A stretch of 64,000 nucleotides of DNA from Escherichia phage Turkey3: sequence record PQ471515.1. One strand, written 5' to 3'. This document shows positions 15,097 through 27,823 of this stretch, in pieces; position 1 is the first letter of the stretch; each line of letters opens with the position of its first letter. The position numbers and the translations under genes are program-made. A model generated the notes under the pieces. It saw nothing but the letters and a program-made list of their open reading frames with translations, was not told the origin of the DNA and did not search any database.

Positions 15097-15405
15097 ATGT
15101 TTCAAACTAACACTCAAGGTTTTGTAATCATCGATTTGAATCAAAACAGCGGTTATTGGATGAAACCTACTGACGCATGTATGCAGTTTGATTTTTTAGG
15201 TTACAGGATTAGTGTAAGTACTGGTGCTTCTGTACTGCGTGGTGGTTGTATCGTTGAACATCTGGTAACTGATCCAGAAGGTCGTGAGTATGAAATCGCA
15301 GGTTCAGTACAAGATGCCATTATGTTTGTATGTCAGCGTGAAATGAATAGTTCGAATTCAAATGCACTGACTCATGCTCTTTCTCAAGAAGTGGAGGTTC
15401 GTTAA
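15097..15405 (+). CDS. hypothetical protein
   Basis: 102 aa, GAGGAA RBS. Confidence 0.5.
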   Translation: MFQTNTQGFVIIDLNQNSGYWMKPTDACMQFDFLGYRISVSTGASVLRGGCIVEHLVTDPEGREYEIAGSVQDAIMFVCQREMNSSNSNALTHALSQEVEVR

Positions 15406-15656
15406 TGAAATATATCGTAGCAGTACTCGTTGCATTTTTACTCACTGCATGTGACGCTTCAACCAAAGAACGCACAAGTGATTTTATTCTCCCTATTGAA
15501 TTACAAGAAGCAGGATGTAAGATTTATCGTATGCAAAAGGATGGTGCTGGCGTAACCTTGTATACAGTTTATTGCCCTAATGCAAATACCAGTACTGGAT
15601 ACAGCAGCGGTAAAACACGAATCAATACTTCAGTGATTAATGGAGTACAACAATGA
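15405..15656 (+). CDS. putative small lipoprotein
   Basis: signal peptide with lipobox-like LTAC (MKYIVAVLVAFLLTACDAS). Confidence 0.5.
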   Translation: MKYIVAVLVAFLLTACDASTKERTSDFILPIELQEAGCKIYRMQKDGAGVTLYTVYCPNANTSTGYSSGKTRINTSVINGVQQ

Positions 15657-16021
15657 GCCTTGATACAACCCGTGCAACAGATTTATTAACTCGTATGAAT
15701 AATGAAGAATTTCTTGCTGAAATAAAGTACAAGCTTGAAAAACTGGCACGAAGTGCTGAAGTAATTGAAGTTGAAGGTCACTTACCAATGGACCAATTCC
15801 ATACGTTCAACGAAGATATGGTTTATTATCCAAATGAAATTTGGATTGAGTGGGAGTCATGGACTAACAAAACTCTACGCATTGAAGGTTATTGTGTGAA
15901 TTATGAATCTGAACCTGGTGATGTTACAAAAACTCTCTCCATTTGGTGTACAAAAACACATGAACTCGTTGAGGTGAATTTGAATTATATGAAAGGTTTC
16001 CGTTGGGGTGATGTTCAATGA
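15653..16021 (+). CDS. hypothetical protein
   Basis: 122-aa ORF. Confidence 0.5.
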   Translation: MSLDTTRATDLLTRMNNEEFLAEIKYKLEKLARSAEVIEVEGHLPMDQFHTFNEDMVYYPNEIWIEWESWTNKTLRIEGYCVNYESEPGDVTKTLSIWCTKTHELVEVNLNYMKGFRWGDVQ

Positions 16022-16293
16022 TTAAAAAACTATTGACAGTTGTCTTTGTATTCTGTACAATGTTTCTTACAGCATGTAATGAAGACGGCAGGTTTAGTGC
16101 AAAAGACTTAGTTCGTCAGGATTGTACATTCACAGGTAAGTCTTTTATTAACGAGTATGAAATATGTACACAATCAGGTCGTATCTGTGGTGGTTGGGAA
16201 AAACGTCAGGAGCGATTGTATGTATATGAATGCCCTGGTCATCTCAACAAAGTACTAAGCACACACAAACTTGTTTATGATAAGGTTGAATAA
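16018..16293 (+). CDS. putative small Cys-rich lipoprotein
   Basis: lipobox-like LTAC after hydrophobic leader. Confidence 0.5.
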   Translation: MIKKLLTVVFVFCTMFLTACNEDGRFSAKDLVRQDCTFTGKSFINEYEICTQSGRICGGWEKRQERLYVYECPGHLNKVLSTHKLVYDKVE

Positions 16294-16508
16294 TGACTAC
16301 CAATGAAATGATGCAGGTTATTTGGGATAAAGGTTGCGATCTTAAAATCACCAGTACTGATGTTCGTGTATTCAAAACTGAATATATGGAGTACTTGGAC
16401 CTTGATACTTATAATAATATTGTATCAATTGAACACAAAGGTGCAGTACTGGAAACAATTGACGTAGTACTGAAGAAAGCTACCGACCTATTAGGAGCGG
16501 CAGTGTGA
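16293..16508 (+). CDS. hypothetical small protein
   Basis: 71-aa ORF. Confidence 0.45.
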   Translation: MTTNEMMQVIWDKGCDLKITSTDVRVFKTEYMEYLDLDTYNNIVSIEHKGAVLETIDVVLKKATDLLGAAV

Positions 16509-16661
16509 ATAACAAAGAGTGGGAAGAGTACCGTAAGAAGTGCAGGGAGTTTGATAAAGAACTAACTGGTACAGTGAATGCAGTAATGTGGGTATCTGTA
16601 ATTATTGCAGTTCTTGCGTTGGGTGCTATTATTATTAATAAATTATTCTAAGGCGAATATC

Positions 16662-16862
16662 ATGTTTACTTTATATCTCGCAGTAGTTCTCACCAATGGT
16701 GAAATCACTCGTACTATTGGTGAAGGTGTATATAAAACACCAGACCAGTGCTACTCTGCTACTCATTGGCCTCGCGATAGTGGGGATGAAACTCGCACTG
16801 AATTCAAATGCATGAAAGTAAAAGGTGATTTTGTTAACCTTAAGGTTATCGAGGCGAAATAA
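16662..16862 (+). CDS. hypothetical small protein
   Basis: ORF track 16605-16862; start moved to MFTLYL after AAGG. Confidence 0.4.
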   Translation: MFTLYLAVVLTNGEITRTIGEGVYKTPDQCYSATHWPRDSGDETRTEFKCMKVKGDFVNLKVIEAK

Positions 16863-17377
16863 TGGATATTAATGAGTTGTTGATCTTATTGTTTAATCGT
16901 GGAAATGATGTAAGACGTTCTGAATATCAAGACAAAATTCACATTGAAACTGATAAATGTTATGGTAAAACAACTCATGAGATTTTGAAGCCAAATGGCA
17001 AACGATATGCCGATGTATGTTTTCATGAACGAAGTGATGGTAGTGAAATAATCAGTACTGAAATTGTGTTTTATGATAGATCCTCGGCAGGTTCGTATGA
17101 AATAGAACTTATATATTGTCCTGGTTCAGAAACACACAATAAACGTCAGATATTATATGATGTTTATTCACCTCCAGGTGTAGCTGAATATTTTGTTATT
17201 GATTACAGTACTGAAGAAAGTGTGTTTCAACAGAGCTTGATTCATAACTTCCAGTTGAATGATCCAAATGTACCAAAGTTGTTCAAACTACTCGATACTA
17301 TCGATGTTGATTTTGAATTTGTTATGTGCATTAGAACTTCCTTGATCGATGAATTTATGGAACTACTTAATATATGA
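16862..17377 (+). CDS. hypothetical protein, FQY-motif paralog family
   Basis: 171 aa; EESVFQQSLIHNFQLND motif. Confidence 0.55.
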   Translation: MDINELLILLFNRGNDVRRSEYQDKIHIETDKCYGKTTHEILKPNGKRYADVCFHERSDGSEIISTEIVFYDRSSAGSYEIELIYCPGSETHNKRQILYDVYSPPGVAEYFVIDYSTEESVFQQSLIHNFQLNDPNVPKLFKLLDTIDVDFEFVMCIRTSLIDEFMELLNI

Positions 17378-17595
17378 ATCGTTACTACATTGTGTATGAG
17401 CATGTATCTGAGTTTAATAATGTACGTGGTTATAAGAAAGAAGTACAGAAGATTGATGTATTTGTTCGTGCATTAAGTCCAACACATGCACTATTTAAAT
17501 TGTTTGATGAAGTAACTAAGTACAACACATCAAAAACACAACGCTATATTGAAACAGTACATAGTGTAATACTCACTGAATATGATGGAGAATGA
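17374..17595 (+). CDS. hypothetical small protein
   Basis: 73-aa ORF. Confidence 0.45.
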   Translation: MNRYYIVYEHVSEFNNVRGYKKEVQKIDVFVRALSPTHALFKLFDEVTKYNTSKTQRYIETVHSVILTEYDGE

Positions 17596-26659: not shown

Positions 26660-26669
26660 ACATTTAAAA

Positions 26670-26701
26670 GGTTGACTTCGGTCAACCTTTTTTTGTAAAT
26701 A
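26670..26701 (+). promoter_or_regulatory. stem-loop + promoter element (PeSL-like, variant)
   Basis: GGTTGACTTCGGTCAACC + T-run. Confidence 0.6.
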
Positions 26702-26730
26702 TTGTAGAGGGTTTTATAAGAGGTAATGCA

Positions 26731-27343
26731 ATGTTTAAATATGTTTTATTTTCACTTGTATTGTTTACTGATATAGTTTATAGTACTGAATACCAGTGCT
26801 CCATTGCTAGACAGGAGTTTAGAAACGGTGAGTTCTATACCAAGTCTTACACTAGAGGATTGGTACATGACAATAATAAAACTATAGGGTTCAATGCATT
26901 TGATAACAAAGATCGATATACGTCTGGAATACTATCTGAACGTAAGTCGGATATACTAGGTATCGAGCGTGAATTCCGGTGACACGGTTGCAATGTGTAA
27001 TGATATTGAGAGTACTAAGAAAGTATATACTAATGGTGAAAATACTTTTAGATTCCACAATCTTACTACCAATGAAAGTTTATACTTCTACAACTGTAAA
27101 GAGTTCATTAAACCTGTGGATAACTCATGTGATATGCCGGAGCCAAAAACTGCTGTATGTGAGGAACCACAATCTAAAGCTGACAAAGATTCAAAAGATA
27201 AGAAAGACAAAGCTGACAAATCGGATAAAAAAGAAAACAAAAAGAAAGCTAAAGATGATAAAGATAAAAAGTCCCCTAAGCCAAATCCATTTGAAAAGCC
27301 AAAGAATGAAAAGCCAAAACCAGACATGACATGTAAAATATAA
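26731..27343 (+). pseudogene. secreted Lys/Asp-rich low-complexity protein split by an apparent frameshift (ORFs 26731-26982 and 26969-27343)
   Basis: two same-direction ORFs overlapping by 14 nt; first has a signal peptide, second a KDKKDK tail; real frameshift, programmed shift or error cannot be told apart. Confidence 0.35.
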
Positions 27344-27350
27344 AAGAAAA

Positions 27351-27383
27351 GGGTTGACTTCGGTCGGCCCTTTTTGCTATAAT
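27351..27383 (+). promoter_or_regulatory. stem-loop + promoter element (PeSL-like)
   Basis: GGGTTGACTTCGGTCGGCCC-TTTTTGC-TATAAT. Confidence 0.65.
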
Positions 27384-27409
27384 CATTTTATCAACTACTG
27401 GAGGCAAAC

Positions 27410-27823
27410 ATGTTAAAAGTTATTTTCCGTTCTATCAGTTCATTACTTCTTATGATTAGTTCAGTTTGTTATGCAAATGAAGTATCTGATTTATTTGAGA
27501 AGAATTACCCAACTGCACAAGAGATGGGTGTTTTAAAATGCAAGCTAACTTCGTACAACATCATCGGCAGTAAACTTGTACTGGAACATGAACGTAGTAC
27601 ACCAATCCCTCTAGTAGAAGAAGGTAGTACCTTTAGCTTCAAGTACGGGGTGAACGTAACATCTGGTGTAATGAACAATGTTGATGCAGAGACTGGTTCA
27701 ACATGGAGTACTAGTGGCAAAGATGTGTTTCATCGTATGCGTGAAAATGGTAAACTAAAGTACGTATATGAAAGTTCATTCATGAAACGTGTATTCATTA
27801 TAAAAAATTGTGTACCAGCATAA
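27410..27823 (+). CDS. hypothetical secreted protein
   Basis: 137 aa, signal peptide ending CYA-NE. Confidence 0.55.
   Translation: MLKVIFRSISSLLLMISSVCYANEVSDLFEKNYPTAQEMGVLKCKLTSYNIIGSKLVLEHERSTPIPLVEEGSTFSFKYGVNVTSGVMNNVDAETGSTWSTSGKDVFHRMRENGKLKYVYESSFMKRVFIIKNCVPA

Follow-up and report, generated by a model that had tools for sequence, protein, structure and literature searches.

A 64,000-nucleotide stretch of the genome of Escherichia phage Turkey3 (record PQ471515.1), referred to here as the window and numbered from its first letter, contains a block of small genes at positions 15405-27823, many of whose products appear to be sent to the envelope of the infected cell. On balance we lean towards an explanation in which this block is an early-type accessory region, transcribed by the host RNA polymerase, that encodes a battery of small Sec-exported, disulfide-stabilized proteins. 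These proteins, together with the interleaved inner-membrane proteins containing three to four transmembrane (TM) segments, would together protect or reshape the envelope; two of the exported proteins, encoded by genes 19418 and 20174, would act as inhibitors of muralytic enzymes. The most informative new result concerns these two proteins, which are predicted to be paralogous disulfide-clamped barrels with the architecture of PliC, MliC, ACP and PhiA, and whose genes share a conserved cassette with those of small membrane proteins. The data presented below establish or strongly indicate the export of the proteins, the reality of the genes and their conservation in the genus, their faster evolution and turnover, and their organization in promoter-to-terminator cassettes. 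Genes are named by the position at which they start, and lie on the + strand unless stated otherwise.

Judged by nucleotide identity, the window is part of an Asteriusvirus jumbo coliphage. Its region 15000-28000 shares 99.3% identity with Escherichia phage vB_Ec-M-J, 99.1% with fEgEco12, and 81-87% with the Asteriusvirus jumbo myoviruses 121Q, PBECO4 and G17 (∼350-385 kb). Positions 1-39853 are densely packed with small genes, all on the + strand, among which is the gene for a phage sigma factor (11263-12228). All nine candidate exported open reading frames (ORFs) are annotated as coding sequences in several public records, and orthologues of the genes in the block were found in 121Q, G17, JNE01, UE-S1, Salmonella phage SD-15_S21 and A4, whose syntenic loci were compared with the window.

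The sequence-only reading that preceded this analysis had proposed that at least nine small ORFs start with a signal peptide, two of them with an LTAC lipobox, and that they constitute an envelope-targeted early programme. The observation is borne out, and on firm statistical ground: the nine ORFs are all present, and a strict rule-based test applied to the 123 gene models of the window selected exactly these nine. To pass, a protein must have a basic n-region free of acidic residues, an h-region consisting of 9-22 uncharged residues, and either a small-x-small site at −3/−1 or a lipobox, defined as [LVI][ASTVI][GAS]C; a TM segment further along disqualifies it. A permissive version picked out several weak cases besides the nine ORFs. 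Fewer than 1% of the controls of the same composition passed the strict rule (1 of 123 reversed sequences, 0 of 221 internal Met starts and 9 of 2460 shuffled sequences). The genes that pass are concentrated in the block, with 8 of the 32 genes within 15405-27823 selected compared with 1 of the 91 elsewhere in the window (Fisher p = 7.5e-5), and eight of the nine have a Shine-Dalgarno-like motif at the correct spacing. The predicted mature domains are also distinctive in their Cys content, as eight of the nine contain 2 or 4 Cys, compared with 29% of 45 other small soluble proteins of the window, and these Cys are invariant among orthologues. Within each family the signal peptides vary in sequence while retaining the n/h/c design, as illustrated by the orthologues of 19418, whose variants include MKKYIRMIMVFVVFMLYSRFSTA, MMKYVIITITFLIGLISSSANA and MGKLTIIIAMIMALNVMPVEA. 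A plausible −3/−1 site or lipobox is found in all nine proteins and is retained by their orthologues despite this drift. The two lipoboxes are indeed L-T-A-C, ending at Cys16 of 15405 and Cys20 of 16018. The exported genes alternate with genes for small polytopic membrane proteins (18712, 19013, 19794, 22485 and 24510, with three to four TM segments) and for a protein with one TM segment (24387), and hence nearly half of the genes in this stretch are envelope-directed. The signal-peptide test with its controls, the Cys parity, the conserved design of the signal peptides and the interleaved membrane genes provide good support for the view that seven proteins with type I signal peptides and two lipoproteins are exported by the Sec pathway and targeted to the envelope.

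These data also bear on a sceptical view, in which the hydrophobic N-termini are uncleaved anchors, or arise by chance in small ORFs of high A+T content, and no theme unites the cluster. Signal peptides were called by a home-made rule alone, the 35% G+C content favours codons for Ile, Leu, Phe and Lys, and many other small membrane proteins are encoded across the window. The rarity of passing controls, the cleavage sites and lipoboxes kept by orthologues, and the parity and invariance of the Cys all speak against this view, as does a confident structural model of 20174 (described below), the globular part of which begins right past the predicted cleavage site. Chance or misread anchors are therefore very improbable as the origin of the cluster.

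The arrangement of promoters and terminators is consistent with early transcription of the block. The + strand of the window contains 27 matches to at least 11 of the 12 positions of the sigma70 consensus and the − strand contains 1, where ∼2.9 are expected per strand, and most of these sites are located 25-100 nt 5′ of start codons. A perfect consensus promoter, TTGACA-16-TATAAT (18938-18965), heads a four-gene cassette that ends at a hairpin terminator with a UUCG loop (20712-20746). The terminator is fused to the next promoter, such that TTGACT in the stem serves as the −35 element and is followed by the T-run and TATAAT. The implied unit comprises 19013, 19418, 19794, 20174 and a small ORF annotated at ∼20527-20718. 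Similarly, a promoter that matches at 11 of 12 positions (24311-24340), embedded in a hairpin element, heads a unit spanning 24387-25066 that contains 24387, 24510 and 24770 and ends at a second UUCG-loop terminator (25087-25108), while another 11/12 promoter (27354-27383), 27 nt upstream of 27410, heads a unit that starts with this gene. The conserved UUCG-loop hairpin, GGGTTGACTTCGGTCAGCCC, occurs in seven copies (at 12237, 20715, 25089, 26670, 32372, 33756 and 36516), four of which double as a terminator and the −35 element of the following promoter; an eighth, diverged copy with the loop TTCA is found at the head of the 24311 promoter. The ∼50-nt hairpin/promoter element gave blastn matches in GAP32, where it is named ‘terminator', in Pectobacterium phage CBB, where it is named ‘redundant repeat', and in Erwinia jumbo phages. 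The T4-type late motif TATAAATA is depleted, with 2 copies in 64 kb compared with ∼7 expected per strand. These copies, at 23877-23884 and 25119-25126, are positioned 40 nt upstream of 23917 and 29 nt upstream of 25148, respectively, both of which are annotated as virion structural protein genes embedded in the early-type block. As sigma70-type sites are strongly biased to the coding strand and the late motif precedes only virion genes, the logic that applies to T4 and CBB would place the exported genes in an early class transcribed by the host polymerase; an early-class inference of the same kind has been published for the related phage CBB (PMC5259590). The early timing proposed in the sequence-only reading thus fits the promoter bias and the placement of the late motif, and stands by inference only. 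No transcript data for Asteriusvirus were found in the literature searched, the papers on fEgEco12 and Sharanji state nothing on these exported genes, and the phAPEC6 paper, examined for signal peptides, promoters, timing and lysozymes, makes no relevant statement on them.

Gene 19418 (19418-19783) encodes barrel paralogue A, a secreted protein of 121 residues with a predicted cleavage site STA/VPA and Cys near both ends of the mature domain; its ATG is internal to a GTG-started ORF that begins at 19388. Barrel paralogue B, encoded by 20174 (20174-20524), is a secreted protein of 116 residues with a predicted cleavage site SYA/EPL. The two mature domains align with each other (hhalign probability 79%, E 1.6e-5) and each cross-matches the orthologues of the other. 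When 1.84 billion representative proteins were searched exhaustively by profile, only eight clusters were identified, in which both paralogue groups were retrieved by one profile, and all eight clusters have signal-peptide-like N-termini and the Cys pair. By these profile comparisons 19418 and 20174 are true paralogues. They conserve the segment C...IDGxxYxF, which is the loose Cys...DGEVY.F pattern suggested earlier for 19418, 20174 and 24770; the pattern is thus real. The protein encoded by 24770 has a motif-like stretch, similar spacing and an N- and C-terminal Cys pair in common with the barrels, but no profile-level homology was detected by hhalign, with a deepened 24770 alignment or with an extended barrel profile, and clustering by profile comparison united only 19418 and 20174. 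The inclusion of 24770 in one family with the barrels is thus not borne out. A broader superfamily of five ‘terminal Cys clamp' proteins (19418, 20174, 22190, 24770 and 27410) was also considered and rejected, as hhalign on mature domains, with merged and extended profiles and the deepened 24770 alignment, linked 19418 and 20174 alone; 22190 and 27410 contain the terminal Cys clamp and display no detectable homology to the barrels.

The AlphaFold2 model of mature 20174, generated with an alignment as input, has a mean predicted local distance difference test (pLDDT) score of 86.7 and a predicted template-modelling (pTM) score of 0.77, and displays eight β-strands in up-and-down order. The invariant residues C8 and C94 are located on strands 6-10 and 90-96, the first and the last of the barrel, in both paralogue groups and in distant members of the family, and are predicted to form a disulfide that would clamp strand 1 to strand 8. 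The only invariant Gly of the family is in the loop that connects strands 4 and 5, within the most conserved segment of the proteins (IGNKK in the 19418 group and VGDISF in the 20174 group). Comparison of the model with the Protein Data Bank (PDB) revealed fold matches to Brucella PliC (score 7.9), Brucella PhiA (7.8), E. coli YdhA/MliC (7.7) and Neisseria ACP (6.8), all of which are inhibitors of peptidoglycan hydrolases. The PliC/MliC/ACP/PhiA group is characterized by an eight-strand barrel with a preserved disulfide between strands 1 and 8 (PMC5507604), and the model suggests that 19418 and 20174 are periplasmic proteins of this architecture. MliC and PliC contain the motifs SxSGAxY in loop 4 and YxxxTKG in strand 6 (PMC5507604). 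As both motifs are absent and there is no match to the Pfam MliC model, sequence criteria place 19418 and 20174 outside the MliC/PliC family. ACP also lacks both motifs and nonetheless inhibits lysozyme (PMC5507604), and the two phage barrels plausibly work in a manner similar to the MliC/PliC inhibitors. The predicted fold of 20174 thus supplies a concrete mechanistic lead for the functional suggestion made in the sequence-only reading, namely that such proteins could exclude superinfection or inhibit envelope systems. Comparable barrels are predicted for a few further phages in the BFVD database, among them a Serratia phage ‘lipoprotein', and no report of phage-encoded proteins with the MliC/PliC fold was found within the literature searched.

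The two barrels alternate with membrane proteins in the four-gene cassette. The first gene, tmA (19013-19339), encodes a protein of 108 residues with three TM segments and is followed by barrel A; tmB (19794-20177) encodes a protein of 127 residues with three to four TM segments and its stop codon overlaps the start of barrel B (ATGA). All of the Asteriusviruses sampled have the order tmA-barrel A-tmB-barrel B and the ATGA overlap at the start of barrel B, and the order is also found in metagenomic contigs whose proteins are 24-47% identical to those of the window. The cassette is flanked by the perfect promoter and the hairpin terminator described above. The possibility that it arose by tandem duplication of a TM-plus-barrel module was examined and rejected, as tmA and tmB are not detectably related. 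Each barrel may cooperate with the polytopic membrane protein encoded just upstream, loosely resembling T4 Imm plus Sp.

The size and topology of tmA and tmB are also holin-like, and these features, with the translational coupling of the two proteins to secreted ones, raise the possibility that the region controls lysis. The proteins with three to four TM segments would be holin-like, and their secreted partners would be antiholins or lysis-inhibition sensors that act at the periplasmic side in the manner of T4 RI and RIII, or regulators of spanins or the endolysin; such a module would set the long latent period of the jumbo phage. T4 has periplasmic lysis regulators, and the GH24 lysozyme of the phage itself could just as well be held in check by a PliC-like barrel. 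These considerations are opposed by the strong sigma70-type promoters of the cassettes, which have no late motif, by the absence of an endolysin or spanin gene nearby within the window, and by the lack of any holin match in PHROGs or Pfam. In addition, there are several unrelated pairs of TM and secreted proteins with a patchy distribution, unlike an essential lysis cassette. Lysis control is thus a distinctly unlikely role for the region.

Inhibition of a muralytic enzyme by the barrels requires a suitable target. A lysozyme-family protein of 96 kDa, found in the phAPEC6 virion and encoded close to the gene for the baseplate wedge, and a GH24 lysozyme of 162 residues are both present in the genus (PMC7247149, PMC12805682); a virion-borne muralytic target therefore exists. 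The barrels would most likely be stoichiometric inhibitors, and the most attractive target would be the virion-borne lysozyme of incoming related phages, while alternative targets could be the phage's own endolysin or host lytic transglycosylases. The T4 protein Spackle, produced early and exported to the periplasm, contains a disulfide and inhibits the tail lysozyme gp5; it contributes to superinfection exclusion together with Imm, a membrane protein (PMC7677548). The barrels may thus be functional analogues of Spackle that provide exclusion and resistance to lysis from without. As Spackle is helical, the likeness would reflect functional analogy rather than homology. That the barrels inhibit a peptidoglycan-cleaving enzyme in the periplasm, leading to Spackle-like exclusion or to protection from lysis from without, is a tentative proposal that we would expect to fail rather more often than to hold. 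A more specific version, to which we assign only a small chance, is that the tandem arrangement of TM proteins and PliC/MliC-fold barrels represents an undescribed envelope-protection system that evolved independently of T4 Imm/Spackle, with each barrel neutralizing a different muralytic enzyme. The targets could be, for example, the virion lysozyme of a superinfecting Asteriusvirus and a glycosidase of another phage or the host, and the membrane partner could anchor the barrel, deliver it, or block DNA entry.

Several observations weigh against the explanation that we favour and, in particular, against the role proposed for the barrels. Eight-strand barrels with unrelated roles score nearly as well against the 20174 model as the inhibitors do (haemoglobin linker, 8.5; domains related to penicillin-binding proteins, 8.1; Cap15, 7.6), and thus the fold by itself is not decisive. 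The identity of 20174 to the inhibitor structures is 1-15%, a search of PDB sequences with 20174 gave no hit at E≤10, the Pfam MliC model (PF09864) gave no match at E≤1, and the SxSGAxY and YxxxTKG motifs are missing from the alignments of both paralogues. The targets of MliC and PliC are C-type lysozymes, whereas the phage lysozymes are of T4 type (GH24) or uncharacterized. As tmA and tmB are not paralogues, it cannot be shown that a single module of TM protein plus barrel was duplicated. The faster divergence of the exported proteins, described below, may be due to a relaxation of constraint and not to an arms race. There is a functional lead for two of the nine exported proteins only, with the compartment alone indicated for the other seven, and both the timing and the export of the nine proteins are inferred.

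Comparison with the relatives of Turkey3 showed that the exported proteins are the most divergent of the block. When compared with 121Q, exported proteins have a median identity of 66%, membrane proteins one of 81% and cytoplasmic proteins one of 93% (Mann-Whitney p about 1e-3), and the exported and membrane genes are absent from relatives more often than their cytoplasmic neighbours. Genes 22485, 24510 and 24770 are restricted to the clade of the window, partly also being present in JNE01, while 22190, 26731 and 27410 are patchy. The pair 24510-24770 is an insertion between the homologue of 121Q gp200 and the downstream hairpin/promoter (window 24300-25150 compared with 121Q locus 10939-11209). 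The 121Q unit that corresponds to 24387-25066 contains the tiny TM gene gp200 alone, and JNE01 contains only the 24770 homologue at this site. In phage A4 a full-length 20174 homologue with 58% identity (A4 locus 8668-9021) is followed by a 54-codon ORF (A4 locus 9032-9196) that matches the last 45 residues of the window-type 20174 allele at 96% identity. This 3′ fragment looks like the footprint of allele replacement by recombination. The fast divergence and patchiness of the sequences fit accessory genes under conflict.

The two lipoproteins have been given specific names in databases. The protein encoded by 15405 (15405-15656) has 83 residues, the conserved residues Cys38 and Cys57 and an Asp at position +2 (C-D-A), which is present in all Asteriusvirus orthologues. 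That encoded by 16018 (16018-16293) has 91 residues, four conserved mature Cys and an Asn at +2, which is compatible with an outer-membrane location. Depositors label 15405 as ‘Cor superinfection exclusion protein' or ‘lytic conversion lipoprotein', and 16018 and 26731 as ‘lytic conversion lipoprotein'. Llp of T5 is an outer-membrane lipoprotein that blocks FhuA, and these labels imply that 15405, 16018 and 26731 are Cor/Llp-type lipoproteins that would be positioned on the periplasmic side of the outer membrane, lock the phage's own receptor in that membrane and thereby exclude superinfection. The lipoboxes of 15405 and 16018, their mature domains of 67-71 residues and their conserved, disulfide-capable Cys are Llp-like, and the early-type expression would agree with that of Llp as given in a preprint (bioRxiv 10.64898/2026.03.26.714494). 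The depositor labels and a weak match of 15405 to the Cor family phrog_1119 (E 9.4e-4) point in the same direction. This match, however, covers residues 1-49 only, mostly the signal peptide and lipobox, and the best PHROG is phrog_902 (E 5e-13), whose function is unknown. No PDB sequence hit linked 15405 to Llp, and a Foldseek search of the PDB, with a poor model (pLDDT 60), was uninformative. By tblastn the 15405 family occurs in 579 phage records, which include Felixounavirus, Vequintavirinae, Vibrio phages of ∼114 kb, and Erwinia and Yersinia jumbo phages, that is, phages with very different receptors. The relatives in these records are all hypothetical proteins encoded among early or replication genes, and none is beside receptor-binding genes; two Cys, the lipobox and an LPxE(L/M) motif are retained across the family. 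According to the +2 rule of E. coli, an Asp next to the lipidated Cys favours retention in the inner membrane, and retention there is therefore favoured for 15405, in contrast to Llp and Cor, which are lipoproteins of the outer membrane. The protein encoded by 26731 has no lipobox, and its ‘lytic conversion lipoprotein' label is therefore wrong on the face of it. Masking of the receptor is thus an unlikely function for these proteins, and the sequence comparisons do not support the Cor/Llp labels. The possibility that 15405 is a spanin was also rejected, as the protein is not proline-rich, there is no adjacent i-spanin-like gene and its context is of early type.

Similar caution applies to the label ‘immunity to superinfection', which depositors have attached to 22485 and 24510. 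The former (22485-22721; 78 residues, three TM segments) gives at best a sub-threshold match to the Pfam family Imm_superinfect (PF14373; E 0.014, 15.7 bits compared with a cut-off of 27.9), while no match to this family was found for 24510, 19013, 19794 or 18712, and thus alignment to the family provides no basis for the label of 24510. Scans of the nine exported proteins and ten membrane neighbours against Pfam, PHROGs and NCBIfam returned only PHROGs of unknown function and sub-threshold hits, among which those to Cor, TrbK, Imm_superinfect and DUF2645 are driven by signal peptides. PF16225, a precomputed tag on 15405 homologues, was not reproduced with current Pfam at E≤10. PDB sequence searches with 15405, 20174, 7416, 16018, 27410 and 24770 gave noise only, with no hit to Spackle (19418, 22190 and 26731 were not searched).

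The five remaining exported proteins are secreted. The product of 22190 (22190-22414) has 74 residues, a predicted cleavage site VCA/KPK and a terminal Cys pair, and that of 24770 (24770-25066) has 98 residues, a predicted cleavage site VLA/TPN, an invariant terminal Cys pair and a barrel-like design in which homology is unproven. The protein encoded by 26731 (26731-26982) has 83 residues, a predicted cleavage site VYS/TEY (SYG/ADY in 121Q) and one conserved Cys, and that encoded by 27410 (27410-27823) has 137 residues, a predicted cleavage site CYA/NEV and a Cys pair, one member of which is 4 residues from the C-terminus. The outlier beyond the main block, 7416 (7416-7874; 152 residues, predicted cleavage site VHA/EDQ, two mature Cys), belongs to phrog_36332 (function unknown); the start at 7410 used in the sequence-only reading is a TTG two codons 5′ of the ATG at 7416 chosen by depositors. 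For these proteins, as for 15405 and 16018, distinct targets in the envelope are probable, although sequence does not allow us to name them. The exported proteins could, in principle, provide other forms of envelope protection or takeover, either as inhibitors of colicins or of the peptidoglycan-hydrolase effectors of type VI secretion systems, or as blockers of host envelope-stress responses, secretion, uptake or anti-phage defences. The nine exported proteins mostly have no relationship with one another, as might be expected if they had a range of targets, and their rapid evolution also speaks for this idea. This idea has poor prospects as a general account, as Pfam, NCBIfam and PHROGs revealed no specific similarity to immunity or anti-defence families (PADLOC was not scanned), and it is generic and hard to falsify from sequence.

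The membrane genes of the block that are outside the four-gene cassette include 18712 (18712-18954), which encodes a small protein of 80 residues with three TM segments, and two genes of the second promoter-to-terminator unit. These are 24387 (24387-24500), which encodes a tiny single-TM protein of 37 residues homologous to 121Q gp200, and 24510 (24510-24773), which encodes a protein of 87 residues with three TM segments and overlaps at its end with the start of 24770. The 66-residue product of the ORF 16662-16862 begins with the short hydrophobic stretch MFTLYLAVVL, contains two conserved Cys and weakly matches DUF1482 (E 0.0018). It fails the strict signal-peptide rule but might be associated with a membrane. 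Directly 3′ of 26731 is the ORF 26969-27343 (or from the ATG at 26991), the product of which has a Cys-rich N-terminal part, a long low-complexity tail rich in Lys and Asp, and, at the C-terminus, the conserved sequence PDMTCKI(K). This product lacks a signal peptide and evolves fast, sharing 46% identity with that of 121Q. The view that 26731 and 26969 constitute one frameshifted gene was rejected, as the frame offset is not the same in the window and 121Q, and the two are therefore separate genes.

Beyond the block, ten small proteins of ∼104-123 residues with three TM segments are encoded in two tandem arrays (28120-29155 and 37414-39853), which are related to each other (hhalign probability 91.8%, E 7.5e-7) and increase the envelope-directed load of the region. 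On the − strand, 39890-60210 contains ∼17 paralogous genes for proteins of ∼245-460 residues, nearly all of which begin with MLPF(A/V)RM..YGN and are named ‘regulator of chromosome condensation' (RCC1-like) in the vB_Ec-M-J record. These are followed on the + strand (60295-63896) by ∼15 very small genes, encoding 59-78 residues, of a few repeated sequence types such as MNTFEYY... and MQE(F/Y)YI....

Jumbo phages each contain hundreds of unannotated small early genes, and in the block described here a quarter of the genes appear to encode exported proteins. The envelope-directed genes are the fastest-changing ones, and it is here that conflicts between phages, and between phage and host, are expected. 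If the role proposed for the barrels is correct, they would represent a second, independent structural solution for superinfection exclusion at the peptidoglycan step. They would also be new proteinaceous inhibitors of phage muralytic enzymes, of relevance to phage cocktails and endolysin-based antimicrobials. Finally, the unsupported labels Cor, lytic conversion lipoprotein and immunity to superinfection are spreading in databases, and are corrected here.

With respect to known systems, 15405 shares the lipobox, the LPxE(L/M) motif and two Cys with the other members of phrog_902, from Asteriusviruses to Felixounavirus, Vequintavirinae and Vibrio phages; as the family has no attached function, membership names the protein and does not explain it. 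The lipoproteins 15405 and 16018 resemble T5 Llp and Cor in their small size, disulfide-capable Cys and early-type region. They differ from them in the features of 15405 described above, namely a weak Cor match dominated by the signal peptide, the lack of an Llp match, the Asp at +2 and a family spread across phages with unrelated receptors. The barrels are similar to MliC/PliC, ACP and PhiA in having an exported domain of ∼100 residues, a predicted fold that corresponds to the eight-stranded antiparallel β-barrel of ∼85-100 residues typical of MliC/PliC, and Cys on the first and last strands, and their most conserved stretch, around the strand 4-strand 5 loop, corresponds to the inhibitory loop of MliC/PliC. 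In contrast to MliC/PliC, they have no sequence relationship or binding motifs in common with that family, are encoded by a virulent phage and are paired with a gene for a small polytopic membrane protein. Comparison with T4 also reveals differences, as the TM proteins of the cassette, unlike Imm, have no Imm_superinfect match, the fold search with the 20174 model revealed no relationship to Spackle, and Spackle is an α-helical bundle that acts allosterically, while 20174 is predicted to be all-β. By analogy, T4 Spackle/Imm is nevertheless the closest match for the possible mode of action of the barrels, which, as proposed here, would likewise be early, Sec-exported, small periplasmic proteins with a disulfide that inhibit a virion lysozyme beside an inner-membrane partner.

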